Below are positions 1 to 13,254 of a stretch of 13,254 bases of DNA, piece by piece. The notes under the pieces were generated by a model. The model saw nothing but the letters and a program-made list of their open reading frames with translations, had not been told where the DNA came from and did not search any database. The DNA is taken from the UHGV virus genome UHGV-0180761; one strand, written 5' to 3'. The translations under genes were made by a program, and so were the position numbers. This DNA is from a virus. Each line of letters starts with the position of its first letter. Position 1 is the stretch's first letter.

Positions 1-49
1 TTGCAACAAGTTGCTGTTGTTTTATTTTGTACACAAAGTATCTTTAACT

Positions 50-604
50 TTATTTATCCCCTGCAGGAAACCTCTTATACAAAGTTGACACACCAACATC
101 ATAGATAATCGCCACCTTCTGGCGAGGAATGCCTGATGCAATTAATCGCCCGGCCTGCGCCCATTGTTCTAGTGTAAGTTTGGGACGACGTCCCCCAATT
201 CGTCCCTGTGCGCGAGCAGCTTCCAGTCCAGCTTTTGTTCGTTCAACAATCAGTTCTCGTTCCATTTCAGCCAGGGCACCCATCACATGAAAGAAAAAAC
301 GCCCCATCGGTGTGCTGGTATCAATAGCATCCGTCAGGCTGCGAAAATTAACGCCACGTTCGCGCAACTCCTCAACCAGAATGACCAGATGCCGCATACT
401 GCGCCCCAGCCGATCCAGCTTCCAGACAACCAGAGTGTCACCTGCCGATAATGTCCTGAGCAGTTTTTTCAGTCCCGGCCTTTCGGACTTTGTACCGCTT
501 ATCTTGTCTTCAAAAATCAGCTCGCATCCTGCACAGTTCAGCGCATTACGTTGTAGATCTGTGTTCTGGTCATTTGTTGACACACGTACATAGCCAATAA
601 GCAT
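50..604 (-). CDS. pin: Serine recombinase, DNA invertase of the Pin/Gin/Hin/Cin family (184 aa)
   Basis: N-terminal catalytic motif GYVRVSTNDQ, resolvase core, C-terminal HTH (GIPRQKVAIIYDVGVSTLYK). Start taken at internal Met (MLIGYVRV), giving 184 aa; the 12-codon extension in the ORF track has no support. Confidence 0.9.
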   Translation of the reverse strand: MLIGYVRVSTNDQNTDLQRNALNCAGCELIFEDKISGTKSERPGLKKLLRTLSAGDTLVVWKLDRLGRSMRHLVILVEELRERGVNFRSLTDAIDTSTPMGRFFFHVMGALAEMERELIVERTKAGLEAARAQGRIGGRRPKLTLEQWAQAGRLIASGIPRQKVAIIYDVGVSTLYKRFPAGDK

Positions 605-658
605 GGTAGATCTCCCTGACAAAAGCAGGAATGATGCCATTTGCTCGTTATTTCTGCA

Positions 659-684
659 TTTTCATAAATGTTGGTTTGGGAGAA
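659..684. promoter_or_regulatory. Candidate invertase crossover (pix/gix-like) site
   Basis: TTTTCATAAATG-TT-GGTTTGGGAGAA: two 12-bp half-sites around a 2-bp core, the right half resembling the GGTTT-type half-site of gix/hix sites as I remember them; about 55 bp upstream of the pin start. Left half is a poor match. Confidence 0.3.
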
Positions 685-795
685 GCGGCGAAAAGGGATG
701 TGGGCACAGGAGATAATCAGATACCGGATAAAACCGTTCTTACCCGCGCCGAACTTATCCTTCTGCGCGGTTTTCGTGTCTATACGATGCATGGA

Positions 796-1380
796 TTACT
801 CCGGATATTTAAAAATTACGTAGGTATGCGACGGGCAGAGTTTGTTAAGCACACACTCGACAACGGTGTCACCCCAGATACGCAGTGCGGAATCACAGGG
901 ATCGCCACATGTCATCCAGGTGGTGTTGGTGGTGGTTGGCATGTTGACCTGCCAGTAATACCGCCATTCCGGCGCATTCACCGCGTCAGTACAGGCCGAT
1001 GAGCAGGTGAACGTGCTTTTGTCGTATCGCGTGATGGTGGCATCTGGTCTGCCCAGGGCAGCAAGCTGTGCAAGATAAAAATCCTCGTTGATGCCGCCCG
1101 CCAGGTTAACCTTCGCATCCAGCCGTTGCTGACGCTGGCGAAGGGTCTGTGTCCCTGCGGGAATACATTCATCCGGCAGGCCGCACAGACGCTCCCAGCG
1201 ATTTATCAGTTCGGTGGTGGTGCGCGGATCCAGCTCCCGCATCAGGGCATCCGCACGCTGATGAACACGGGTTAATGACGGTGCCGCACCGGCAATCGCC
1301 GGATCGCTGGCTGACCACGCCGGACCGGGGGGCAACAGTGCCGACAACAGACGGATGTAATCATCGTTTGTCACGTCCAT
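796..1380 (-). CDS. ymfQ: YmfQ-like phage baseplate/tail-associated protein (DUF2313-type, 194 aa)
   Basis: ORF 796..1461; start moved to the internal Met at 1380 ([12 protein letters not shown]), which has a GGGGA Shine-Dalgarno about 7 nt upstream and gives 194 aa. Family assignment is from memory, not a search. Confidence 0.6.
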
Positions 1381-1497
1381 GAAATCGTCCCCAGTACCCC
1401 AGCTCGCGGACATCCTTCCCGGTGGGTTCATCAAACTCCAGTACGGAGAGTGTCTCACCATGAGCGATAATCGGTTTCTTTAACTCAAGCTCTTTCA

Positions 1498-1854
1498 TTA
1501 CTGGTAATCCCCTTCTTCACCGTGGAACTCAAGATCAACCGTGCCTTCTTCGGCATTATGGTTCGCTTCTCCGTGCAGCCAGGCGGACGACAATACATAG
1601 ACCTGACCGTTCGCCAGCTCGGCAGTGATGGTCATCTCATCAGACGAGGTGATTTTGCTCACCGGAAAATTCTTCGGCACCTTGAAGGTCCCTTTGACAT
1701 AAGGCGCACGGTGAGTTTCCTTGCGGTCCACTGAACCGTCCAGGCCGATGATGTCATCATTGACCGTCCTGTTCATGGGCACCTCAATGCCGCCGGTCAG
1801 CGATAGCTGCTGACCGTCAATTTTGAAATAACAGGTTCCCCCGATACGGGCCAT
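1498..1854 (-). CDS. Hypothetical phage protein, 118 aa (possibly a tail-tube-like remnant of the structural module)
   Basis: Clean ORF whose ATG overlaps the stop of the upstream 490-aa ORF (TAATG arrangement), which suggests translational coupling. No diagnostic motif recognised; function is a guess from position. Confidence 0.5.
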   Translation of the reverse strand: MARIGGTCYFKIDGQQLSLTGGIEVPMNRTVNDDIIGLDGSVDRKETHRAPYVKGTFKVPKNFPVSKITSSDEMTITAELANGQVYVLSSAWLHGEANHNAEEGTVDLEFHGEEGDYQ

Positions 1855-3326
1855 TATGCAGACTCCTCTGAATACTGAAGACGGAACTGGTTAACCACGG
1901 CAAAAACACGCAACTGGTTAACATAGTCAGGCGGGAACAGCGTGTTCAGGCGGTTCGGATCGCTGGCATCACGCTCCACAACCAGGTACTGCTTAAACAG
2001 TTCGTAGTTTTCCACGATCCCCGCACGCTCAAGCTGACGGTAGGTTGCCAGCAGTTCCCCTTTGATCACCGCCGGAGTGACAATCGCCTGACCGGGACCA
2101 AAGCGGGTACCGTCACTGGCAAGCTTGTGACGCCCGTACTTACTGGTAATGACGGATTTCAGTTTGCGCAGTACATACGCGCTGGTATGCAGCGTCTCAC
2201 TGTCGAGGTAGCTGTTATCCGCAACCCCGTAAGCGTTTTTCCTGTACGTGGTGACATCACGCTGAATGCGCAGTACCCCGCTTTCGACATACGCCGTTGC
2301 CACGCCATGAGACAGCAGGGTCTGTTGTTCGGTCATCGTGAACCGTTTCCCCTTCGGCGCAGGCAGCATACCCACCAGCTCACCGGTCTGCGTGGGACGT
2401 GCCGGATCGTTGCGGATAAACACCGCTGCGCGGGCGGTACGGCTTGCCGCCAGCTCGTCGGCAGGCGTCTGGGTCTCTTTTTCGTACCCCGCCAGGGTAA
2501 TGTGCTGCTGGTTAAACTGGTCACCTGCGGTCACCAGTTCTGACAGCGTACCGGTCTTTGCCGTATACACATGACCATACAGCTGACGCGCATAGCTCCA
2601 GCGACCGCTGGTATCGTTCATCTCGGTCAGGCGAATTTCGTTTGCCCAGGCTGTCCAGTTCGGTTCTTTGGGACGAACCACCTCGCCGTCACATTCGGCG
2701 GCCTGCTCGTACAGGGCGATGATTTTTTTCCAGAGCCACTGTGCGCAGGTCAAATCATCCTGCGTTCCCCACTGGCGCTTTTTAGGGCTGAATACAACCG
2801 CATCAGGATGGCGAGTTAAAAACTCCTGTTCAGCCGTCTGCGTGTCCGGTTGCGAAGCGTCCGGACGAGAAGTTTTTTTATCTGACGGATCATGTTTTGA
2901 TTTTACTGACGGATCCCCGCCAGATTCTGACGGGTGAAAACCCGCTTTTTTGCCAGATTTCGACGCATCAAATTTTGACGGGTCAGATTTTGATGCGTCA
3001 GATTTTGACGGGTCAGAATCTGACAGTTGAGAAAATGCCGCTGCCTGAAGCTTCGCAACGTTAAGCTGATAAACATTCGACGCATTGCGGTTACCCTGGC
3101 GACGCGCCTTACGCGTTAACCAGCCTTCTGCTTCCAGCCGTGCGATAGCCGTTCTGACGGTACTCATTCCCGCGCCAATCTGGCGGGCAATGGTTTCAAT
3201 TGATGGCCAGCACACACCTTCGTCATTACTGAAATCAGCCTGGCGGGCCATAATTGCCACGCTGGATAATTTCATGCCTGATGCAGCGCAACCATCCCAT
3301 ACATAGCCGGTTAATTTAGTGCTCAT
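1854..3326 (-). CDS. YmfN-like chimeric protein (490 aa): N-terminal winged-helix replication-initiator-like domain, low-complexity repeat linker, C-terminal phage structural or packaging domain
   Basis: ATG at 3326 with AGAGG Shine-Dalgarno; N-terminus has an HTH-like segment (SIETIARQIGAGMSTVRTAIARLEAEGWL); middle is a D/S/K/P-rich repeat; the C-terminal 250 aa look like a phage virion or packaging protein, but I cannot tell sheath-like from terminase-like without a search. Confidence 0.7.
   Translation of the reverse strand: MSTKLTGYVWDGCAASGMKLSSVAIMARQADFSNDEGVCWPSIETIARQIGAGMSTVRTAIARLEAEGWLTRKARRQGNRNASNVYQLNVAKLQAAAFSQLSDSDPSKSDASKSDPSKFDASKSGKKAGFHPSESGGDPSVKSKHDPSDKKTSRPDASQPDTQTAEQEFLTRHPDAVVFSPKKRQWGTQDDLTCAQWLWKKIIALYEQAAECDGEVVRPKEPNWTAWANEIRLTEMNDTSGRWSYARQLYGHVYTAKTGTLSELVTAGDQFNQQHITLAGYEKETQTPADELAASRTARAAVFIRNDPARPTQTGELVGMLPAPKGKRFTMTEQQTLLSHGVATAYVESGVLRIQRDVTTYRKNAYGVADNSYLDSETLHTSAYVLRKLKSVITSKYGRHKLASDGTRFGPGQAIVTPAVIKGELLATYRQLERAGIVENYELFKQYLVVERDASDPNRLNTLFPPDYVNQLRVFAVVNQFRLQYSEESA
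2955..3026. repeat. Tandem repeat, about 5 imperfect copies of a 15-bp unit (GATTTTGACGGGTCA / GATTTTGATGCGTCA), inside the YmfN-like CDS
   Basis: Directly visible: agatttcgacgcatca aattttgacgggtca gattttgatgcgtca gattttgacgggtca gaatctgacag. Encodes pentapeptide repeats (SKSDA/SKSDP) on the minus strand; related degenerate copies continue upstream to about 2893. Confidence 0.8.
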
Positions 3327-3335
3327 GACCGACCT

Positions 3336-3674
3336 CTATTTCCCTGAATTTACGACGAAACTGTTCGAGCGGGCTGAAGCACTCATGCTCATAGCCTTCG
3401 CGGAGGTAGATAACACGTTGTGTTTCCGGCTCCCAACGAATGACTCTGACGGGCACACCGTAGTGATCTTTGAACCAGCGGTTAACTTGTCGCAAAGGAC
3501 TGTCTCCTTCTGCCGGTTGAAATCACCCACAGCCCACTCTGCAAAGCTGTGGGTTACAATTTCCCTGTCACCTGGTACATTTACTGCATAGCAATACTCC
3601 ACCTTCGCTTTTCCACCCGGTACAGGAAGCGCAATCAGTTGCGAGCGACGGTAGTGTGTTGTTAAACTGTTCAT
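3336..3674 (-). CDS. ymfM: YmfM-like protein (112 aa)
   Basis: ORF length equals K-12 YmfM (112 aa) and sits in the same position after the YmfL-like gene; ATGA start/stop overlap with the upstream gene. Identity by length and synteny only. Confidence 0.6.
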
Positions 3675-4234
3675 GCGTTAGTTTCTCCACAGTCACGACA
3701 CGCCACGGCGCCCGGAGCTGCACACTCGCGGGCGTCACTACTTTCTGAAACGCAAAAGATTTTGTAGACCAGTGCTGCATGCTCCTGCAGCTTCGAAATT
3801 GAGAGATACAGCTCATCGTTAATTGCTGTCTTCTCATGCGGTTCCACTACACCGTCTTCAATTGCTGAACGAATCTGTTTTGAATAACTGCCGATCTGTT
3901 CAATGACTTCCAGCAGGCGTTGGTTGATATCGGCGTTGTCCACATCCTCGACGTCAGGAAGAGACACAAAGACGCCATTTGCAGACTGCGCCACAGCATC
4001 AGCAATGAAGTGAGTGCCACCAGCACGCTGTAAAACCATTGCCCATCCCAGCGGGAAAATCTGATCGCCATCTGCACGAAGGCGGTTGAATAAAGCGTTT
4101 TCTGTTACATCGAGCCAGTCAGCCGCTTCAGCGTAACCACCCGGCAACGCCGCGATAGTTTTTCTGACAGCTTTCACGTACCACTCAGGCTGTTTTTCTA
4201 TTTTCCAGTGATGCTTACCCACGGTTAGCCTCAT
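3671..4234 (-). CDS. ymfL: YmfL-like protein (187 aa), function unknown
   Basis: First gene downstream of cro on the minus strand, coupled to the YmfM-like gene by an ATGA overlap; C-terminal CxxC pair ([17 protein letters not shown]). Name by synteny and length (K-12 YmfL about 189 aa). Confidence 0.6.
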
Positions 4235-4265
4235 CGTTCTGTGGTTAAAAATTGAAAGTGTTCTG

Positions 4266-4466
4266 CTAATCTTTCGGATAGATATCCGGTCTTAAGTCAG
4301 ATTTCGTAATTGCACCTGACGTGCATTGCTCAAGTTTTTTAGCCAGCACAAAACTGGCTTTTTTATAGCCATTGAAAACCAGCCGTAAGTAGCCAGGTGT
4401 TGAGCCAACTTTTCCGGCCAACTCGCCCTGCTGTTCTTTGGTTAAAGAGTCCCAATACGCTTTCAT
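4266..4466 (-). CDS. croE: Cro-like repressor (66 aa)
   Basis: Short form MKAYWDSLTKEQQGELAGKVGSTPGYLRLVFNGYKKASFVLAKKLEQ with an HTH; GAGG Shine-Dalgarno upstream of ATG at 4466; divergent from the cI-type repressor across an operator region. The 167-aa ORF in the track is an artefactual extension through the operators. Confidence 0.75.
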   Translation of the reverse strand: MKAYWDSLTKEQQGELAGKVGSTPGYLRLVFNGYKKASFVLAKKLEQCTSGAITKSDLRPDIYPKD

Positions 4467-4468
4467 AC

Positions 4469-4493
4469 AATATGTACCTCCGGTGTACATATT
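4469..4493. promoter_or_regulatory. Operator-like palindrome AATATGTAC-N7-GTACATATT (OR site)
   Basis: Perfect 9-bp inverted arms directly upstream of the cro start, in the cro/cI intergenic region. Confidence 0.55.
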
Positions 4494-4520
4494 ACATGAT
4501 TGAAATGAACCTTCAAGATA

Positions 4521-4541
4521 CTTGTACCTTAACGGTACAAG
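4521..4541. promoter_or_regulatory. Operator-like palindrome CTTGTACC-N5-GGTACAAG (OR site), overlapping a putative PRM-like promoter
   Basis: Perfect 8-bp inverted arms 16 bp upstream of the repressor ATG; TTTAAT at 4545-4550 is a possible -10 that would give a near-leaderless repressor mRNA (inference). Confidence 0.55.
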
Positions 4542-4556
4542 GGTTTTAATTTCGTT

Positions 4557-5231
4557 ATGAAAACAATCCATGACATCCGGCGGTCTAACGCCAGAAAACT
4601 GAGAGATGGTGTTGGCGGGAATTCTTCCTTTGCCACTATGATTGATCGCGAGCCAACCCAGACCAGCAGGTTTATGGGAGATGGTGCTACTAAAAATATC
4701 GGTGACAGCATGGCACGACACATCGAAAAATGTTTCGACCTGCCTGTCGGATGGCTCGATCAAGAACACCAGACAACGAACATCACAAAAAAACCTGATG
4801 TTTCAATCACTAATAAACAAATCACATTAGTCCCTGTCATATCATGGGTACAGGCCGGAGCATGGAAAGAAGTTGGATATTCTGAGGTTGATTTGAGCAC
4901 AGCAGAAACGTATCCCTGCCCTGTACCCTGTGGGGAAATGACTTATATCTTGCGGGTGATAGGTGATTCAATGATTGATGAGTACCGCCCGGGAGACATG
5001 ATTTTTGTCGATCCTGAAGTACCTGCCTGCCACGGTGACGACGTTATTGCATTGATGCACGATACAGGCGAAACCACCTTCAAAAGGTTGATAGAAGATG
5101 GGACACAGCGTTATCTCAAAGCGTTAAACCCAAACTGGCCTGAGCCTTACATTAAGATCAACGGTAATTGCTCTATAATTGGTACAGTGATTTTCTCAGG
5201 AAAACCAAGAAGATACAAAATCAAAGCCTAA
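4557..5231 (+). CDS. cohE: CI-type prophage repressor with C-terminal S24 (LexA-like) autopeptidase domain (224 aa)
   Basis: C-terminal S24 motif (VIGDSMIDEYRPGDMIFVDPE ... TFKRL, Ser/Lys dyad context); divergent from cro; length equals K-12 CohE (224 aa). Confidence 0.85.
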   Translation: MKTIHDIRRSNARKLRDGVGGNSSFATMIDREPTQTSRFMGDGATKNIGDSMARHIEKCFDLPVGWLDQEHQTTNITKKPDVSITNKQITLVPVISWVQAGAWKEVGYSEVDLSTAETYPCPVPCGEMTYILRVIGDSMIDEYRPGDMIFVDPEVPACHGDDVIALMHDTGETTFKRLIEDGTQRYLKALNPNWPEPYIKINGNCSIIGTVIFSGKPRRYKIKA

Positions 5232-5243
5232 TCAATGTTTATG

Positions 5244-5266
5244 AACCTGCTTCGGCAGGTTTTTTT
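5244..5266 (+). terminator. Rho-independent terminator downstream of the repressor gene
   Basis: AACCTGC-TTCG-GCAGGTT hairpin followed by a run of 6-7 T, starting 13 nt after the repressor stop codon. Confidence 0.7.
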
Positions 5267-5270
5267 ATAC

Positions 5271-5303
5271 TTGACAATGTACCTTTGAGATACATAATGT
5301 ACC
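5271..5303 (+). promoter_or_regulatory. PL-like sigma70 promoter with two direct AATGTACC operator half-sites
   Basis: TTGACA (5271-5276), 16-bp spacer, CATAAT (5293-5298); AATGTACC at 5276-5283 and 5296-5303 overlap the -35 and -10, sharing the TGTACC core of the cro/cI operators. Confidence 0.55.
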
Positions 5304-5380
5304 CAAGCGAAACAACGAACAGGCAGGACGCCCACGAAGTAGCCGCCTGGGGCATATGAAGTCCAGGATGATTCGTTAGC

Positions 5381-5407
5381 AACAAAAAAGCGCCCTACAG
5401 GACGCTT
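5381..5407 (-). terminator. Minus-strand intrinsic terminator-like hairpin
   Basis: On the minus strand: AAGCG(T)CC-TGTAG-GGCGCTT followed by TTTTGTTG; lies about 240 nt downstream of the stop of the 144-aa minus-strand gene. Confidence 0.4.
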
Positions 5408-5465
5408 AGCTCTTTAACAATCTGGTCCCCATCAACAAGTAACTGATAACTTGAGGAGATGTGAA

Positions 5466-5672
5466 ATGCACAAAACAGAACCCAAAATCGTCGCGCCTGG
5501 CTACACAGATGAGGAAATTTATGAGTGGATGACAAAGAAGCTGGCAGCTATAAACCAGCTTCGTGAAGTGCTGTCTTATCGACAGGAAACAATAGACTCC
5601 TTAAAAAAACTGGATCAGGAAATCACGGTTTTATCACAGGATGTTACTTTAGATATTGTGCAGACAAATTAG
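5466..5672 (+). CDS. Hypothetical small protein (68 aa), first ORF after the PL-like promoter
   Basis: ATG at 5466 with GAGGAG Shine-Dalgarno 6 nt upstream (the ORF track started at an upstream TTG); predicted helical/coiled-coil-like. Its 3-prime end overlaps the convergent 144-aa gene by 29 nt. Confidence 0.4.
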   Translation: MHKTEPKIVAPGYTDEEIYEWMTKKLAAINQLREVLSYRQETIDSLKKLDQEITVLSQDVTLDIVQTN

Positions 5673-6078
5673 GATCCCATTCATTTTCGTCAAAATCATC
5701 AAAGTGATGAATTTGTGATCTCCAGTCTCGATAATCTAAAAATTTCTGGGCGGTTACGCTTATTTTATCAAGTGTGAGTTCATCCTGAATTGAAAGAAGA
5801 AGTTCATCAAATTTCATCTCATTAATCTGTTTTGGCATCCAGTGATGCTTCATCAGAATAAGGTGAACCAGAGCCTTTTTCCCATTCAACTGATTATAGG
5901 GAGTGCCGAATTTCTTCCGGTGCTCATGTAAGACAAGGTCCAAAAGAGTAAGTAATGTTGCCCTTGATTCAACTTTGCTTATTTCGACTGATGACACTAC
6001 CCCACTGATTTCAATGCCCCGATACTTTCCAACATTTTCACAGTGGGATTTGTACAGCGTATAGATATTACCGGACAT
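5644..6078 (-). CDS. Hypothetical protein (144 aa), AT-rich moron gene of unknown function
   Basis: Clean ORF with AAGGA Shine-Dalgarno about 7 nt upstream of ATG at 6078; visibly more AT-rich than flanking prophage genes; opposite orientation to the surrounding plus-strand operon. No motif recognised. Confidence 0.6.
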   Translation of the reverse strand: MSGNIYTLYKSHCENVGKYRGIEISGVVSSVEISKVESRATLLTLLDLVLHEHRKKFGTPYNQLNGKKALVHLILMKHHWMPKQINEMKFDELLLSIQDELTLDKISVTAQKFLDYRDWRSQIHHFDDFDENEWDPNLSAQYLK

Positions 6079-6092
6079 TTCTTTTCCTTTTG

Positions 6093-6143
6093 CGTTGTTG
6101 GGGATAACCAGATTAACCGAATCCTTGTTGTTGGGGAATAACC
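6093..6143. repeat. Direct repeat GTTGTTGGGGATAACCAG / GTTGTTGGGGAATAACCAGG upstream of the 144-aa gene
   Basis: Two 18-20-bp near-identical copies (one has an extra A) separated by about 13 bp, sitting 15-65 bp upstream of the minus-strand start codon. Confidence 0.6.
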
Positions 6144-6364
6144 AGGTCCACCTCGCCTGATGTGGCTAAAAGCAGGCACATAACAGCTAAGTATTTTCAA
6201 CCAGAGAGAATCCTTAGCGTTGTGGTGAATGCGGCTCAGCGCACGCGGGTTAAGGTTGAGGCTGACAGTCGACCTTCTGTGGATACCCACCCGCCTGGTG
6301 TGCAACCTTCGCCAGGCACCGGGAGGCACCCGGCACCACAACTTTATGCTGTGTGTAGTCCTGG

Positions 6365-6410
6365 CGGTACCAGTTTGTACCCTTGCTTCCGGCTGGTACC
6401 GTCCTTTTTA
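6365..6410 (+). promoter_or_regulatory. Inverted repeat CGGTACCAG-N19-CTGGTACCG followed by a T-run; operator cluster or terminator-like element in a non-coding stretch
   Basis: Perfect 9-bp arms; the spacer contains TTGTACCC (same core as the cro/cI operators); followed by TCCTTTTTA. Lies in a roughly 400-bp GC-rich region with no convincing ORF. Confidence 0.35.
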
Positions 6411-6546
6411 CAAAACAGAGAAGAGCATCACCGGACGACGGGCTCATAACCCAATCCATCCGGGCGGCTGCCACCGCAGGTGTTCTTCTCTGTTTTGTGG
6501 AGAAACTAATCGGCCTTGCAGGGTCGATATGATGAGGAGCAGCAAA

Positions 6547-6909
6547 ATGGCTAGCGAACGCAGTACTGATGTGCAGGCATTTATCGGGGAGCTGGACGGC
6601 GGCGTATTTGAAACCAAAATCGGCGCAGTTCTCAGTGAAGTCGCTTCCGGTGTGATGAACACGAAAACCAAAGGTAAGGTCTCACTCAACCTGGAAATCG
6701 AACCATTTGATGAGAACCGTGTGAAAATCAAACACAAACTCTCATATGTTCGCCCGACTAACCGCGGGAAAATTTCCGAAGAAGACACCACCGAAACGCC
6801 GATGTATGTCAATCGCGGTGGTCGCCTGACTATTCTGCAGGAAGACCAGGGACAGTTACTGACTCTTGCCGGTGAACCTGACGGAAAACTCCGCGCAGCA
6901 GGTCGTTAA
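6547..6909 (+). CDS. YfdP-like prophage protein (120 aa), function unknown
   Basis: Start set at ATG 6547 (GAGGAG 8 nt upstream) rather than the 226-aa track ORF; 120 aa and position upstream of a YfdQ-like gene match the CPS-53 yfdP-yfdQ-yfdR arrangement as I recall it. Confidence 0.55.
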   Translation: MASERSTDVQAFIGELDGGVFETKIGAVLSEVASGVMNTKTKGKVSLNLEIEPFDENRVKIKHKLSYVRPTNRGKISEEDTTETPMYVNRGGRLTILQEDQGQLLTLAGEPDGKLRAAGR

Positions 6910-6974
6910 TATCGTTTTTAATTAACTGATTATTTATCTCATCACTGAATATCTTTATATAGTGAGGACTTATT

Positions 6975-7799
6975 ATGTCTCAGAACTTAGACGCAACCGC
7001 AATTAATCAAATCCATGCCCTTATTTCTGCTCAGGGTGTTAATGAAATTATCAGTAAGATTGGTGCCGATGCTGTGGCATTGCCTGAGAATTTCCGCATT
7101 CATGACCTGGAAAAATTTAATTTAAATCGCTTCCGTTTCCGTGGTGCGCTTTCCACTGCCAGCATTGATGACTTTACCCGTTATTCTAAAGATCTTGCAG
7201 ATGAAGGCACCCGCTGCTTTATCGATGCTGATAATATGCGTGCCGTCAGTGTGCTTAACCTGGGTACTATTGATGAACCAGGCCACGCAGATAACACCGC
7301 CACTCTCAAACTGAAAAAGACAGCACCGTTCTCTGCTCTGTTGTCTGTTCACGGCGAGCGTAACTCCCAGAAATCACTGGCAGAATGGATTGAAGACTGG
7401 GCCGACAACCTTGTGGGCTTTGATGCTAATGGTGACGCCATTCAGGCAACCAAAGCGGCTGCGGCGATCCGTAAAATCACAATTGAAGCGAACCAGACTG
7501 CTGATTTTGAAGACAATGACTTCAGCGGCAAACGCTCCCTGATGGAGTCTGTCGAAGCGAAGACCAAAGACATTATGCCAGTGGCATTTGAATTTAAATG
7601 CGTTCCGTTTGAAGGTCTGAAAGAACGTTCTTTTAAATTACGCCTCAGCATTATCACTGGCGATCGTCCTGTACTTGTTCTGCGCATTATTCAGCTGGAG
7701 GCGGTGCAGGAAGAAATGGCTAACGAATTTCGCGATCTGCTTGTTGAGAAATTCAAAGACAGCAAAGTAGAAACCTTTATTGGTACTTTCACCGCCTGA
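6975..7799 (+). CDS. YfdQ-like prophage protein (DUF2303-type, 274 aa)
   Basis: Clean ATG with TGAGGA Shine-Dalgarno; length matches CPS-53 YfdQ (274 aa); sits between YfdP-like and YfdR-like genes. Confidence 0.75.
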
Positions 7800-7811
7800 T
7801 TTGATTACTGC

Positions 7812-7833
7812 AAATGCCCCTGCGGGGGCATTT
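7812..7833. other. Perfect stem-loop AAATGCCCC-TGCG-GGGGCATTT between the YfdQ-like and HD-domain genes
   Basis: 9-bp GC-rich stem with 4-nt loop, 12 nt after the YfdQ-like stop; only a short TTT follows, so it is more likely an attenuator or RNA-processing/stability element than a strong terminator. Confidence 0.35.
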
Positions 7834-7927
7834 ATGGAAACGTAATTAACTCAATAATCGCCGGATGGTGAGGGCTTCCTTTTACCAGAATTCAGTGCGG
7901 TGCAGCGCAAATAACGTGGAGAACAAA

Positions 7928-8476
7928 ATGTCATTTATTAAAACTTTTTCTGGGAAGCATTTTTATTATGACAGGATAAATAAAGACGATATCGTTATTA
8001 ACGATATCGCGTTTTCCCTTTCAAATATCTGTCGCTTTGCAGGACATCTTTCACACTTCTACAGCGTCGCCCAACATGCGGTTCTTTGCAGCCAACTGGT
8101 ACCGCAGGAATTTGCTTTTGAAGCGTTAATGCATGATGCAACAGAAGTGTATTGCCAGGACATCCCCGCTCCACTGAAACGCCTTCTTCCTGACTATAAA
8201 CAGATGGAAGAAAAAATAGACGCCGTAATCCGTGAGAAATACGGGTTACCCCCGGTTATGAGTACGCCCGTGAAATATGCCGATCTCATCATGCTGGCAA
8301 CCGAACGCCGCGATCTCGGGCTTGATGATGGCTCTTTCTGGCCTGTACTGGAAGGCATCCCGGCAACAGAGATGTTCAACGTGATTCCACTGGCACCGGG
8401 CCATGCCTACGGGATGTTTATGGAACGCTTTAAAGAGCTGCATAAGATGCATAAACAATCCAGACAGCGAAATTAA
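7928..8476 (+). CDS. HD-domain phosphohydrolase, YfdR-like 5-prime-deoxynucleotidase family (182 aa)
   Basis: HD-domain signature residues (RFAGHLSHFYSVAQHA ... LMHDATEVY ... D); start set at ATG 7928 with GGAG Shine-Dalgarno instead of the upstream ATG at 7865. Confidence 0.8.
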   Translation: MSFIKTFSGKHFYYDRINKDDIVINDIAFSLSNICRFAGHLSHFYSVAQHAVLCSQLVPQEFAFEALMHDATEVYCQDIPAPLKRLLPDYKQMEEKIDAVIREKYGLPPVMSTPVKYADLIMLATERRDLGLDDGSFWPVLEGIPATEMFNVIPLAPGHAYGMFMERFKELHKMHKQSRQRN

Positions 8477-8519
8477 CTAGTGAAATAGTTTTGTAGCAAA
8501 AGAAATGAGGTTATCAAAA

Positions 8520-8765
8520 ATGCTTCAAATGCTGACACTTGAGGAATGGGCTGCGGAAAAATACAGAAGTAATCCTCCAAGCGTGTCCACATTGCGTCGT
8601 TATGCTAAGCAGAATTTATTTTGTCCACCGGCAATGAAACAAGGTCGACTATGGCGAGTGCGTGAGGACGCAGAGTTAGTTGGGGAATTAGTTACTCCTG
8701 TCATCAAGAAAAATGATTCTATTATTCTACAAAGGATTTTAAGTAATGGCAGCCAGACCACGTAA
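8520..8765 (+). CDS. xis: Excisionase (81 aa)
   Basis: Small basic protein directly upstream of and overlapping the integrase start by 20 nt; start set at ATG 8520 (GAGG 9 nt upstream), giving 81 aa, the length of K-12 XisE. Confidence 0.7.
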   Translation: MLQMLTLEEWAAEKYRSNPPSVSTLRRYAKQNLFCPPAMKQGRLWRVREDAELVGELVTPVIKKNDSIILQRILSNGSQTT

Positions 8766-9873
8766 AAATAATGTTTCAGTCCCGAACTTGTATCCGCTTT
8801 ATAGTAGAAAAGTAAATAAAGTCTATTGGCGATATAAACATCCAGTGACCGGGAAGTTTCATTCTTTAGGCACAAACGAAGCTGAAGCCATTGCTATTGC
8901 CACTGAGGCAAATTCACGCCTGGCTGAGCAAAGAACCCGGCAGATTCTGGCTATCAGTGACAGGATCGCAACCAGCAAAGGAAAAGCAATCACAACGTCA
9001 ACCTGGTTAGATCGCTATCAAGCAATCCAGGAAGACAGACTGAAAAGTGGCGATATAAAGCTCAACACCTATAAACAGAAAGCCAAACCAGTATCCTTGC
9101 TCAGGGAACGAGCAGGACTGAAGTTGATATCAGCCGTTGATGTCAGAGATATAGCACAATTACTTGATGAGTATATCTCTGCTGGACAGCCTAGAATGGC
9201 CCAGGTCGTAAGGTCTGTATTGATCGATGTGTTTAAGGAAGCACAGCATTACGGCGAAGTTCCACCAGGGTATAACCCTGCTCTTGCAACGAAGCAACCC
9301 AGAAGGAAAATTAGCCGTCAACGCCTCAGCCTAGAAGAATGGAAAAAAATATTCGATATCGCAGACGCCGCTCATCGTTATATGGGAAATGCCATGCTCC
9401 TAGCTTTGGTCACTGGGCAGCGTTTAGGAGATATATCCAAAATGAAATTTAGTGATATTTGGGAGGATCATCTTCACGTCATTCAGGAAAAGACCGGGAG
9501 CAAAATCGCTATCCCTCTTTCTTTACGTTTGAATGCTATCAACTGGTGTTTACGTGATGTAGTAGCTCGCTGCCGTGACTACGCAGTCAGCCCATACTTA
9601 GTGCATTTTTTCCGTACTACATCACAGGCTGAACGTGGCGCACAGGTAAAAGCTAATACACTAACGATGAACTTTAGCAAGGCACGTGATCTGGCAGAAA
9701 TTGATTGGGGTACTGGAACTCCAGCAACTTTTCATGAACAAAGATCTTTATCTGAGCGTCTTTACAAGGAACAAGGGATTGATACCAGAAAGTTACTGGG
9801 CCATAAAACCCAGCAGCAAACCGATCGTTACCATGATGACCGAGGGAAAGGTTGGAGCAAAGTAGCATTGTAA
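8746..9873 (+). CDS. intE: Tyrosine integrase, phage integrase family (375 aa)
   Basis: C-terminal catalytic region with conserved Arg/His/Tyr context (LLGHKTQQQTDRYHDD), N-terminal arm-binding region; 375 aa equals K-12 IntE; preceded by xis. Confidence 0.9.
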   Translation: MAARPRKNNVSVPNLYPLYSRKVNKVYWRYKHPVTGKFHSLGTNEAEAIAIATEANSRLAEQRTRQILAISDRIATSKGKAITTSTWLDRYQAIQEDRLKSGDIKLNTYKQKAKPVSLLRERAGLKLISAVDVRDIAQLLDEYISAGQPRMAQVVRSVLIDVFKEAQHYGEVPPGYNPALATKQPRRKISRQRLSLEEWKKIFDIADAAHRYMGNAMLLALVTGQRLGDISKMKFSDIWEDHLHVIQEKTGSKIAIPLSLRLNAINWCLRDVVARCRDYAVSPYLVHFFRTTSQAERGAQVKANTLTMNFSKARDLAEIDWGTGTPATFHEQRSLSERLYKEQGIDTRKLLGHKTQQQTDRYHDDRGKGWSKVAL

Positions 9874-10078
9874 AAATTTAAGCGTTTCAACGCCATCTTG
9901 ATTTTCTTAACATTATGGAAAAGAACCAAACAGTCCGCTTTGAGCCAGGAACAGAGTTTTCTAATATGGTGAACTGCAATGCCTGAACATATATTAGACC
10001 AATCTTTTGAAATTTTGCTAAAGAATCATCAAATAATGTCGATAATAATGATATACCATATGAAAGGGAATATAATTT

Positions 10079-10576
10079 ATGCCACATTTAGACGAAATTC
10101 GCAGAAAGCTAAGGAAACAATGTCCTACATCCGCAGGCGAGGATGGTGAAGAGTATGCTCTTAAATGGTTAGAAAACTCCCAATGGGAGTTTGTATATGT
10201 CGAACAAGGAAAAACAGACCTATCTAAAAGTTTAAAAATATATGGGGGAAAACGCCCCGATTTTATTATTAAAGTTGATAGTAACACCTTTATTCTTCTG
10301 GATGCAAAGTATCATTCAACAGAGAACTGCACCTCCTTTACACTCACAGAGTGTGAAATAGGTAAGTATCGCGCACTCAAGCAATTTTTAATTAATAAAA
10401 ATAGCGAACTTACGTTCGAAGTGATTTTCATGGTATTTCCAAAAGAAAAAGATGGCAAGAAATTTGTATTTGTTAGTTTGGATGAGTTTGATAAAGGAGA
10501 ATGTGTAACTCTAGCATCAAAAAATGCAACAAAGATTAGTCTACTCAATAGAGATAATTTATGGCTTGACCATTAA
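10079..10576 (+). CDS. Hypothetical protein (165 aa) with a PD-(D/E)xK nuclease-fold signature
   Basis: Motif P60-D61 (GGKRPDFII) followed 14 residues later by hydrophobic-hydrophobic-D-A-K (FILLDAKY), with upstream Glu candidates; AAGGGA Shine-Dalgarno upstream of ATG; located in the AT-rich cargo after int. Confidence 0.6.
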   Translation: MPHLDEIRRKLRKQCPTSAGEDGEEYALKWLENSQWEFVYVEQGKTDLSKSLKIYGGKRPDFIIKVDSNTFILLDAKYHSTENCTSFTLTECEIGKYRALKQFLINKNSELTFEVIFMVFPKEKDGKKFVFVSLDEFDKGECVTLASKNATKISLLNRDNLWLDH

Positions 10577-10865
10577 TGTTAAAAGCGACTTGTTTCTGCA
10601 CTTTTTAAGATTGCTATTTTAATTATGCCGACTATAGATGAAATCTGTGAGTCGTAGTGTGTTTAATAAATATATTCCAACGAAACCTCAGATTATATCA
10701 GATTGCCAGCAAGACTACTGTTAGGAATGTTAGCGTCACAAAATTGACTTTCAAAATGGGTTGAATGTCCGCAGTGAACGAAAAACTGACTTGGCACAGT
10801 CACAGCTAGAAAATTAGTAAGACATCCAATGACTTTTCCCCGATATTGGCTGAATGTCTTTATTA

Positions 10866-11705
10866 CTATCTAAATCTAACCTCACAAAACCAGTTATTTT
10901 CCGAGAGACAACTATAGAGTGCGGATTGCCAAGAATTTAAGCTTACCGATTTTTTTCCAGCTGCGGTTTCAGTCAAGTATTTTTTTAACTCGATACTCCC
11001 CCCCCCATCGTAAATTCTCTTTGCGATATATTCAATGCTCGCTAGTTCTTCAGCTGCATGTGATGCATAAAGAGCAGACAACTTAAATGCCTTAAAGTGA
11101 TACTTCATACGTTTAGCTAAAAGTGGGGGGCAATCTTCAGGTGGCTCTACATAAAACTCTATCGCTACAGGAATAGATTCCCGTATTTTTGCCTTAACCC
11201 AAACAAATGCTTCTACATCATCGTAATATGGGTGCAAAGTTTCTTCTTCTGAGCAAATTGGGATATCTTCGCTCTTTGTTTTATTACAATCCTGACAGGC
11301 TGGTATAAGATTAAAAGGCGATACAGCCAATGATGGAAAATGTGCTTTAGGTAAGTGATGATCTAATGTCGATACTACTCTTTGAGAACATAGTGGGCAT
11401 CTTCCATGATCTGGAAGTGACATTAACTTGTCATAATAGATACGCCCTGGGGCTAATTTCTTAGCCATTCTGCTTGTATAGACAACCTTCATTTCGTCAA
11501 CTGTAACAACAGTGGCAACATTGTCTTTAGGCAAAATTGTATGTAATTGTGCAATTGATACTTTTGCATCAAATTCTATTGAGGAATCTTCTATTTCTTG
11601 AGAACATGCTATAAGCCTCCTCTTTAAATCTTCATCGCGAACTCGATCAATGCATGCATTAAATACATCCAACGCACTATCATTCGGTTTTAAGAGTTTT
11701 TTCAT
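10866..11705 (-). CDS. HNH endonuclease-domain protein (279 aa), second gene of an ATPase-nuclease operon
   Basis: Zinc-finger HNH signature CPLC(103-106) ... DHHLPK(115-120) ... N132 ... CQDCN(137-141); the ATG overlaps the stop of the upstream ATPase gene (ATGA), so the two are translationally coupled. Confidence 0.8.
   Translation of the reverse strand: MKKLLKPNDSALDVFNACIDRVRDEDLKRRLIACSQEIEDSSIEFDAKVSIAQLHTILPKDNVATVVTVDEMKVVYTSRMAKKLAPGRIYYDKLMSLPDHGRCPLCSQRVVSTLDHHLPKAHFPSLAVSPFNLIPACQDCNKTKSEDIPICSEEETLHPYYDDVEAFVWVKAKIRESIPVAIEFYVEPPEDCPPLLAKRMKYHFKAFKLSALYASHAAEELASIEYIAKRIYDGGGSIELKKYLTETAAGKKSVSLNSWQSALYSCLSENNWFCEVRFR
10998..11006. repeat. Homopolymeric C9 tract (G9 on the coding strand) inside the HNH gene
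   Basis: Directly visible: ctccccccccccatc at 10996-11009; encodes Gly234-Gly236 of the HNH protein. Confidence 0.9.
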
Positions 11706-13249
11706 GATTGGTTTCTCTTAATTAAAAACAAAGCCCGCAAAATACCTCTAGCTTCAATTCCAAGTTGCCCATTGAAATTTTGCACAGCTGAATCGTAATC
11801 TTCGAATTTATTTACAGCATCGTCAAGAAGATTATGGAATCCAGAGTCGGTATTTTCCAATCCAAATACCTCCCTCGTTAGTATACCCACATTTTCACCG
11901 AAAGATTCTGTTTCTAGCCTTTCTACTTTAGACAAGTAGCCACTACGCCACAACTTCCACGTACAGCTTCGAGGAACTTCCTGGAGAACTACAGGAGAGT
12001 GGGTAGCTATTATAGATACTGCATTCCTATTAATTAATAAATCAGAAAGAGACCTTACAAAAGCTGATAATAATGGTGGATGGAGATGAGCTTCTGGTTC
12101 ATCTAAAAAAACCAAGCTTCTTTCTTCCATTGTCTCGACAAGTCTAGTGATAGTTAGCAATACAATTTTGTGCCCGGAACTTAAATTTTTGAATACTCTT
12201 CCTGCAATATCTTTAAACTCATCTTCATCTTGTCTATTCAATATTGATGCTACATTAATGTCAGCAAATACTGGATCTGACTCCAGCTTATCCACAGCCC
12301 TTTTCCAACGTTCAATTTTCCCTCCTGCCTTACAAGAAAGCATACTTTTCACGAATTCATTTTTCAATATAACAGGGCTTTTGGGCGGGAGACTTTTCTC
12401 ATCACCTTTTTTTACTCTTTTTAGTCCCACATATGAAAACTGTATACCTGTAGATTTATCTTTTTTTTCTGATAAAGGTTCTGTTTCATCAAAAGCGCTA
12501 AAAGTGACTGATACTACGTTAGAGAAAAGCTCACCAGCTAGTTGATCTTTAGATGAAAATTCACCGACTTTTGTTGGCGTTGTATTTTCGTCAATTAATG
12601 AACTAATCATATTATTCATTAAATGCGTTTTCCCAACACCATTCCGACCAATTAGCACATGAATATTTGTTGGGGGATTGCTCTCTGGTATCACTTCAAA
12701 ACTTAACTTAATACGGTCAGAGTCAGTGCCTTTCATCACTGGTGAGTTATATGAAAATGAATATTTTGAAAGTCGAGCACCTCCGTTCGCAAGTCGACGA
12801 AACTGTCCCTTAATAGATGTATGGCTGACGGATCTCAGAAGAGATATGCTAGTGACCCTCTCATTTATTGCTTTATTATATATATCTTCACTCAGAGCAA
12901 TATCATTAAGCGATGATAATATTTCATTTCGGATATCTTCTCCTAGTTCATTCAACACTTCGTAAAAACTATCATCTTGACCAACGGAGAAAAAACTCTC
13001 ATCTAGTTTTTCGAAAGCTTCAGGGATACTTGGTCTACTTTGACCTTTCGCCATATTCAATTGGCCAATTTTAGTAGAACCAATAATATTCTTATCCTTA
13101 TTTGAATCTATATAAACCAATGTATACATTGTAGAAAATTCAAACCAGTCATCCCAATTATCAGTAATTAAATAGGCACAGTTAGATTGTTCAACAGAGC
13201 ACATACTTCCCGCAGGCAGCACCTTAAATCTCATCTTTATCCCACTCAT
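11702..13249 (-). CDS. ABC-type (AAA_15/AAA_21-like) ATPase, 515 aa, with an unrecognised 200-aa N-terminal domain; first gene of the ATPase-HNH operon
   Basis: Walker A GRNGVGKT (aa 201-208, nt 12626-12649), signature-like LSSGHK (356-361), Walker B LVFLDEPE (379-386), H-loop ATHSP (415-419). In-frame TAA sits immediately upstream of the first ATG, 5 nt from the window edge, so the promoter is outside the window. Confidence 0.8.
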   Translation of the reverse strand: MSGIKMRFKVLPAGSMCSVEQSNCAYLITDNWDDWFEFSTMYTLVYIDSNKDKNIIGSTKIGQLNMAKGQSRPSIPEAFEKLDESFFSVGQDDSFYEVLNELGEDIRNEILSSLNDIALSEDIYNKAINERVTSISLLRSVSHTSIKGQFRRLANGGARLSKYSFSYNSPVMKGTDSDRIKLSFEVIPESNPPTNIHVLIGRNGVGKTHLMNNMISSLIDENTTPTKVGEFSSKDQLAGELFSNVVSVTFSAFDETEPLSEKKDKSTGIQFSYVGLKRVKKGDEKSLPPKSPVILKNEFVKSMLSCKAGGKIERWKRAVDKLESDPVFADINVASILNRQDEDEFKDIAGRVFKNLSSGHKIVLLTITRLVETMEERSLVFLDEPEAHLHPPLLSAFVRSLSDLLINRNAVSIIATHSPVVLQEVPRSCTWKLWRSGYLSKVERLETESFGENVGILTREVFGLENTDSGFHNLLDDAVNKFEDYDSAVQNFNGQLGIEARGILRALFLIKRNQS

Positions 13250-13254
13250 TTATA

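Follow-up and report, generated by a model that had tools for sequence, protein, structure and literature searches.

A pinE-type DNA invertase in a decayed e14-type prophage of E. coli has very probably been orphaned by a deletion that removed its fibre segment and left the inversion switch locally inert. The gene lies in a stretch of viral DNA of 13,254 nt that was analysed as a whole (hereafter the window), and the entire 13.25 kb is an e14-family cryptic prophage at icd in advanced decay. Losing the segment in this way amounts to ordinary prophage decay, and Pin-type invertases without a partner were known before.

The invertase gene pin is intact, as stated in the preliminary description, which had noted its 184 codons and catalytic serine. 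The protein contains a Resolvase domain (Pfam, residues 3-135, E 8e-52) and an HTH_7 domain (residues 138-181), and all 184 of its residues are identical to those of PinE of the E. coli strain S1-JOR-02-A, whose locus (L001) has a complete invertible segment. Identity is 177/184 to PinE of K-12 and 141/181 (78%, E 1e-93) to Gin of phage Mu (PDB 4m6f/3uj3), and the catalytic Ser9 in the motif YVRVSTNDQ aligns with Ser9 of Gin (4m6f). Taking a Resolvase-type domain, an N-terminal active-site serine, a C-terminal HTH and a length of about 180-190 aa as the definition of the subclass, the domains, Ser9 and size of the predicted protein assign it to the serine DNA invertases of the Gin/Hin/Cin/Pin type.

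Upstream, pin has retained its native leader. A sigma-70 consensus scan of positions 605-795 including the leader scored no promoter (the scan was uninformative) and no terminator was predicted between ymfQ and pin; hence transcription from its own leader and read-through from ymfQ are both possible, and pin may be expressed. The 5′ end of the gene, which is conserved with one synonymous change against both L001 and the metagenome contig L003, may also contain the recombinational enhancer: two Fis-like 15-mers of the form G-N13-C lie there with a spacing of 49 bp, the first of them ~95 bp away from the middle of the crossover site. The 65-bp enhancer of Hin carries Fis sites at its two ends and is located about 100 bp from hix (PMC3798978).

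Only 191 bp (605-795) separate pin from ymfQ, exactly as first described, with ymfQ ending at 796 and pin starting at 604; at the corresponding place K-12 has 2187 bp and L001 2191 bp. The interval is not plain spacer. It consists of the pin leader (54 bp), the crossover site, 46 bp of the alternative fibre fragment stfE′, the first 62 bp of stfP and 3 bp (793-795), so that between the site and ymfQ there are only the stfE′ and stfP pieces and no tfa gene. The ymfQ gene itself is intact, with 97% nucleotide identity to the annotated ymfQ genes of L001 and K-12. A longer ORF of 221 aa (796-1461), which had been called YmfQ-like, is a spurious upstream extension of ymfQ over another deletion joint, the chaperone/baseplate-J joint at 1395-1405, which causes it. 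On the pin side, an 84-aa ORF created by the junction is probably meaningless; it had no Pfam match and no identical product on record, and in L003 it is 58 aa long owing to the difference at 618/619. The features of the window are compiled in Table 1.

Table 1. Positions of genes, remnants and recombination elements in the window, with the basis of each assignment.
Feature	Position	Strand	Basis
pin (pinE-type serine DNA invertase), 184 aa + stop, intact	50..604	-	Pfam, identity to Gin/PinE
Candidate Fis-dependent recombinational enhancer in pin 5′ end	520..583	-	Position only
Junction-made 84-aa ORF	538..792	-	Translation: StfP N-terminus, nonsense over site, into pin start
Native pin leader, Shine-Dalgarno AGGGAG	605..658	-	Colinear with intact loci L001 and L006
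Pin-proximal crossover site (pix), sole copy left	659..684	-	Identity to L001/K-12 sites
stfE′ remnant: alternative fibre fragment, first 15 codons past site (AAKRDVGTGDNQIPD)	685..730	+	Matches L001 3685-3730, within annotated gp53-like fragment
Deletion joint 730/731	729..731	.	TA microhomology at 729-730; sequences read directly
stfP remnant: start codon + first 20 codons (MHRIDTKTAQKDKFGAGKNG), plus 2 nt	731..792	-	Matches L001 5731-5792, L004 12535-12596 and K-12 ycfK/stfP
ymfQ (Mu gp48-like baseplate protein), 194 aa, intact	796..1380	-	Pfam Phage_Mu_Gp48
Tail-tube gene	1854->1498	-	Gene content of window
HTH_36::sheath fusion ORF, 490 aa	3326->1854	-	Pfam: HTH_36 residues 30-70, sheath domains from residue 234
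cII-like and Cro-like genes		-	Gene content of window
S24 repressor	4557-5231	+	Gene content of window
yfdP/Q/R-like genes and xis		+	Gene content of window
intE	8746-9873	+	Gene content of window
Two-gene cargo past intE	10866-13249	-	PADLOC PDC-M01A/B and PtuA-like ATPase matches

The single pix-like site proposed upstream of pin aligns with the bona fide pix sites of L001 and K-12. Its minus strand reads TTCTCCCAAACCAACATTTATGAAAA, the same as the pin-proximal site of L001, and is identical at 25 of 26 positions to that of K-12 (TTCTCCCAAACCAACGTTTATGAAAA). These reference crossover sites were taken from annotated K-12 and relatives, and the 26-bp site pattern is TTCTCCCAAACC-NN-GGTTT.... 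The site also holds 15 of the 16 bases of the published e14 P-segment inverted repeat (TTGGTTTGGGAGAAGG; PMC12529663), and is single-copy in the window, with 0 copies expected in shuffled sequences. L001 has two sites, at 3659-3684 and 5490-5515, which are inverted and 1803 bp apart. The distal site is lost from the window because L001 5490-5515 falls within the 2000-bp deletion that we describe below.

We searched the window and the 20.6 kb of L003 for a second site, and neither the exact search nor the one allowing up to 3 mismatches found any; Pin has no partner site within 20 kb. Scanning the same sequences for half-sites (≤9/24 mismatches) returned only 6082-6107 and 6113-6138, with 8-9 mismatches, and we rejected both as crossover sites since such matches are at chance level (~2 per 20 kb). 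These two adjacent stretches both carry the direct repeat TTGTTGGGGA and are intergenic, between the divergent ORFs 5644-6078 and 6229-6909, where the repeat may have a regulatory role. The flank beyond pin was read from L003, which is near-identical to the window (3 base differences), and not from the window's own assembly. L003 reaches 7.3 kb past pin, through mcrA and a 54-aa icd remnant (attR) into the host genes ycgX, bluR (MerR family), bluF (BLUF-EAL) and genes of the ymgA/B type. Fibre genes or a second crossover site just beyond pin would argue against an orphan, and neither was present in this flank. The proposal of an orphan Pin with no invertible segment and one site left is thus upheld, with the loss now mapped and no partner in the window or L003. 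Two inverted sites on one molecule, as in a complete switch, are absent here, and so are the fibre C-termini and the assembly genes.

Compared with L001, exactly 2000 bp are missing (L001 3731-5730). Window positions 1-730 correspond to L001 3001-3730 (99.6%) and positions 725-1405 match L001 5725-6406, the BLAST offsets between window and L001 being 3000 to the left of the joint and 5000 to the right. At the joint, base 728 is specific to the left parent and base 731 to the right parent, and the two parents share only TA, inside a patchy tacc-gg.ta similarity. The lost DNA comprises the pin-distal site, the two tfa genes, the variable stfP part with most of the constant one, and stfE′ except for 46 bp. 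The retained site is complete and has native sequence on both sides. A joint 46 bp away from a complete, natively flanked site, with nothing but TA microhomology, argues for an illegitimate deletion and against an exchange by Pin, and we infer that the mechanism was of the RecA-independent, microhomology type.

That Pin itself made the deletion, by recombining its site with a quasi-site so that deletion instead of inversion resulted, is very improbable. The invertase is present at the locus, TA directly precedes the joint in both parents, and the stfP 5′ region by the joint contains an imperfect palindrome (CGGGTAAAACC-GT-TCTTACCCG) with a half-site-like AAACC core. However, the completeness and native flanks of site 659-684 mean that it was not a recombination partner, the left parent at 730/731 compares poorly with a half-site and gave no pix-like sequence in the half-site scan, and the joint is 5 bp from the position expected for the central dinucleotide of the palindrome. 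With the retained site untouched and a joint that is not pix-like, we rejected this explanation. It is similarly hard to believe that the joint is an assembly artefact produced by collapse over the inverted repeats of a segment present in two orientations. Invertible segments often break or confuse short-read assemblies, and the related contig L004 stops just inside the segment, but a collapse would join at the 26-bp sites, whereas the observed joint falls 46 bp into the segment at one end and 243 bp outside the distal site at the other. The same junction, moreover, occurs in the independently assembled metagenome contig L003, reported for 2 samples, and the deletion joint is therefore real.

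The preferred reading, an illegitimate deletion, can also be placed in time. Joint included, L003 (ENA ERZ19693231) agrees with the window at 13,251 of 13,254 positions. L004 (ERZ505437) has 2 mismatches over window positions 725-13254 and shares the sheath fusion and the tube-to-ymfQ joint; from 725 onward, though, its sequence runs through an intact stfP 5′ part and the distal site (TTCTCCCAAACCAAGGTTTTCGAGAG) and enters the segment. Since L004 shares this backbone yet keeps the fibre DNA and the distal site, the deletion is evolutionarily very recent and the latest of at least three. We noticed that the differences between the window and L003 (587, 618 and 619 only) all lie within 33 bp around the pin start. 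Position 587 is a synonymous change in Val6, and at 618/619, directly 5′ of the Shine-Dalgarno sequence, there is a GA/AG swap; the window allele also occurs in strains CFSAN061772 and 23CRST035. Either this patch is a short conversion from another pin copy, or the metagenome assembly drew in reads from repeated pin 5′ ends.

The prophage around pin is a multiply deleted remnant, with two large deletions besides the loss of the fibre segment. Its e14-family gene order, judged from L003 and annotated relatives, has intE and xis at one end, pin, mcrA and the duplicated icd 3′ end at the other, and a Mu-like tail module with ymfQ. Pieces of the window have 95-99.8% identity to E. coli chromosomes, and none of the complete RefSeq E. 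coli genomes spans ≥80% of window positions 1-3400. The 490-aa fusion ORF combines the N-terminal part of an HTH_36 replication-type protein with the C-terminal half of a tail sheath; the sheath homology ends and the homology to the HTH gene begins at ~2627-2629, and this joint marks a large deletion of late-regulation, lysis, packaging and head genes. Just upstream of ymfQ, a 45-aa fragment of a tail assembly chaperone (TAC_7; 1381-1497, minus strand) is fused at 1395-1405 to the final codons of baseplate J, and it is here that the tape-measure and baseplate genes were lost. The remnant has lost all head, packaging, lysis, tape-measure, baseplate and fibre genes, which means that no particle is possible and that the native role of the switch, the choice of fibre tips, is moot. 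The cargo past intE consists of a 515-aa AAA_21/PtuA-like ATPase and a 279-aa partner that match the PADLOC candidate defence system PDC-M01A/B with E values of 3e-210 and 2e-106.

The nearest complete-genome relatives of the right half of the window are in EC06 (L002) and 23CRST035 (L071), with 99.8% and 98.8% identity over 8 kb. Each of these e14-type elements has its own distinct set of internal deletions, and that of EC06 also carries an IS1 insertion. The e14-type lineage loses prophage DNA by independent steps.

A search of 5,426 complete RefSeq E. coli genomes, of plasmids and of phage records did not find the exact joint at 730/731. The orphan state was found elsewhere, through at least four other independent deletions. 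In CFSAN061772 (L007), pinE, the site and 46 bp are joined to an HTH gene 2.4 kb away; 23CRST035 is joined via a 48-bp baseplate scrap to the HTH gene also used in CFSAN061772; contig L046 is joined inside ymfQ; and in contigs L038 and L077 a tfa gene is joined to ymfQ. All of them resemble the window in having pinE and mcrA at attR and in keeping the proximal site while the distal one is deleted. They differ in their right ends (HTH gene, baseplate fragment plus HTH gene, or inside ymfQ) and in their left ends, which, counted from window position 730, are at 0, about +21, +125 and +727. Nearly all of the 61 sampled loci with enough sequence have a partner site 1.6-1.9 kb away. Ten of them appeared to be single-site loci at the first threshold, and with a relaxed threshold a diverged partner was recognized in nine, leaving L077 alone with a single site. 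Among the sampled loci, orphans are thus a small minority (one clear case, L077, in 61) that arises repeatedly, and the orphan-invertase state is recurrent and already familiar.

Three unrelated junctions end at the same retained bases, ...CAGATACCGGATA (window 727-731, L007 6167-6172, and 111-117 of the IMG/VR contig L072). In the window this left end is joined to stfP codon 21. The joint of CFSAN061772 (...CCGGATA/GCCGTCC) leads with GATA microhomology into the HTH gene, and that of L072 (...CCGGATA/GCTCCGC) is a 185-bp internal deletion that leads, with no microhomology, to the fibre fragment's own 3′ part. The base following 730 is T in 117 other loci. A purely random illegitimate deletion does not predict that a left breakpoint is reused in two unrelated junctions, and the shared breakpoint may be a hot spot or a coincidence. 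If 730/731 were a preferred point of DNA breakage, which we consider improbable, sequence-specific nicking or cleavage would drive the loss of fibre cassettes and repeatedly make orphan invertases. L072 was found by a pattern built for departures at 730, so that the ascertainment bias is real, and CFSAN061772 was found otherwise. Among viral contigs, one departure at 730 was seen in 56, against 0 at two control positions (small numbers), and the GTDB representative genomes contained none. Slippage driven by a hairpin at 730 was rejected, as shuffled versions fold at least as well as the intact sequence (z = +1.2). Past 730, three natural alleles diverge within 2-4 bases, which makes this position also a mosaic boundary of the conserved post-site linker.

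The organization of the window resembles that of e14 of K-12, which has intE and xis at one end and pin, mcrA and icd′ at the other, the order ymfQ-(fibre segment)-pinE, and, as another deletion remnant, chimeric genes. The window, in contrast to K-12, has lost the 1.8-kb P segment together with the distal site. The internal deletions and the immunity regions differ too, and the PDC-M01/PtuA-like pair by int fills the slot that lit/ymfD/ymfE hold in K-12. The HTH_36::sheath fusion is analogous to the YmfN chimera of K-12 e14, which unlike it is a replication/terminase chimera. PinR (Rac) and PinQ (Qin) of K-12 are likewise fibre-adjoining invertases of defective prophages with no flanking pair of sites, Rac having the order stfR-tfaR-pinR without an alternative fibre set. 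However, PinQ and PinR are only 38% identical to PinE (PMC12529663), whereas the window orphan is a true PinE-type enzyme that has kept one crossover site and whose substrate loss can be dated as recent. With Gin/G of Mu, Cin/C of P1 and Hin/H of Salmonella, the window shares the enzyme subclass, with its dependence on Fis and an enhancer (PMC3798978), and the architecture of the 26-bp site; these three are complete two-site switches, whereas the window has a single site and no segment to invert.

To become active, enzymes of this class need two site-bound dimers and a Fis-bound enhancer on one supercoiled molecule, a requirement that limits the reaction to intramolecular inversion (PMC3798978). 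Because the invertasome needs two inverted sites and an enhancer in cis, the one site left renders the locus inert. Intact switches do appear to invert in nature, as expected: in the metagenome loci L042, L045, L067 and L068 the variable fibre block that adjoins pin in the window is attached instead to the stfP constant part, and the switch point between pin-joined and stfP-joined loci falls within the 26-bp site. The block is thus found both ways round in different samples, which is natural evidence of inversion by the intact switch. In the window, a single, very probably illegitimate deletion of 2000 bp removed the distal site, the variable stfP part, both tfa genes and most of stfE′, and left behind an intact pin with its own leader, a presumed internal Fis enhancer and one 26-bp site. 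The local switch is therefore dead, with nothing at the locus able to invert, and Pin, if expressed, could do no more than bind the one site left or, in trans, act on paired sites carried by other prophages of the same cell.

Such action in trans is plausible by analogy with published systems. Neither PinQ nor PinR comes with its own segment, and the two enzymes invert the P segment of e14, as a result of which T2 adsorption is blocked; PinE inverts the H segment of Salmonella and the G segment of Mu, and Fin acts on H (PMC12529663). It has recently been claimed that leftover Pin-type recombinases serve the host in phage defence by flipping the fibre cassettes of other prophages (PMC12529663). 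Whether the orphan Pin of the window has been kept for this purpose, flipping fibre segments of other prophages and possibly acting as a phage-defence switch, is more doubtful, and we regard it as a tentative possibility. The enzyme is full-length, has the whole Gin-aligned catalytic region and is identical to that of a complete-segment locus, and window positions 640-760 have a median of 2 and up to 10 matches per E. coli genome, with several such loci in many genomes. On the other hand, the deletion is so recent (2 mismatches in 12.5 kb against a segment-bearing relative) that an intact pin needs no selective explanation, and the consensus scan gave no pin promoter.

Deletion of the segment from a decayed prophage, which we consider by far the best account of this orphan, makes the locus a clean and datable case of the decay of a host-range switch inside a cryptic prophage, with the recombinase left behind. 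It provides background for the claims that leftover recombinases function in defence (PMC12529663). In this strain, the e14-type P segment, which is the published defence substrate, is gone, and any StfE2-type protection from this locus would go with it. In annotation, finding pinE should not be taken as a sign of a working inversion switch.
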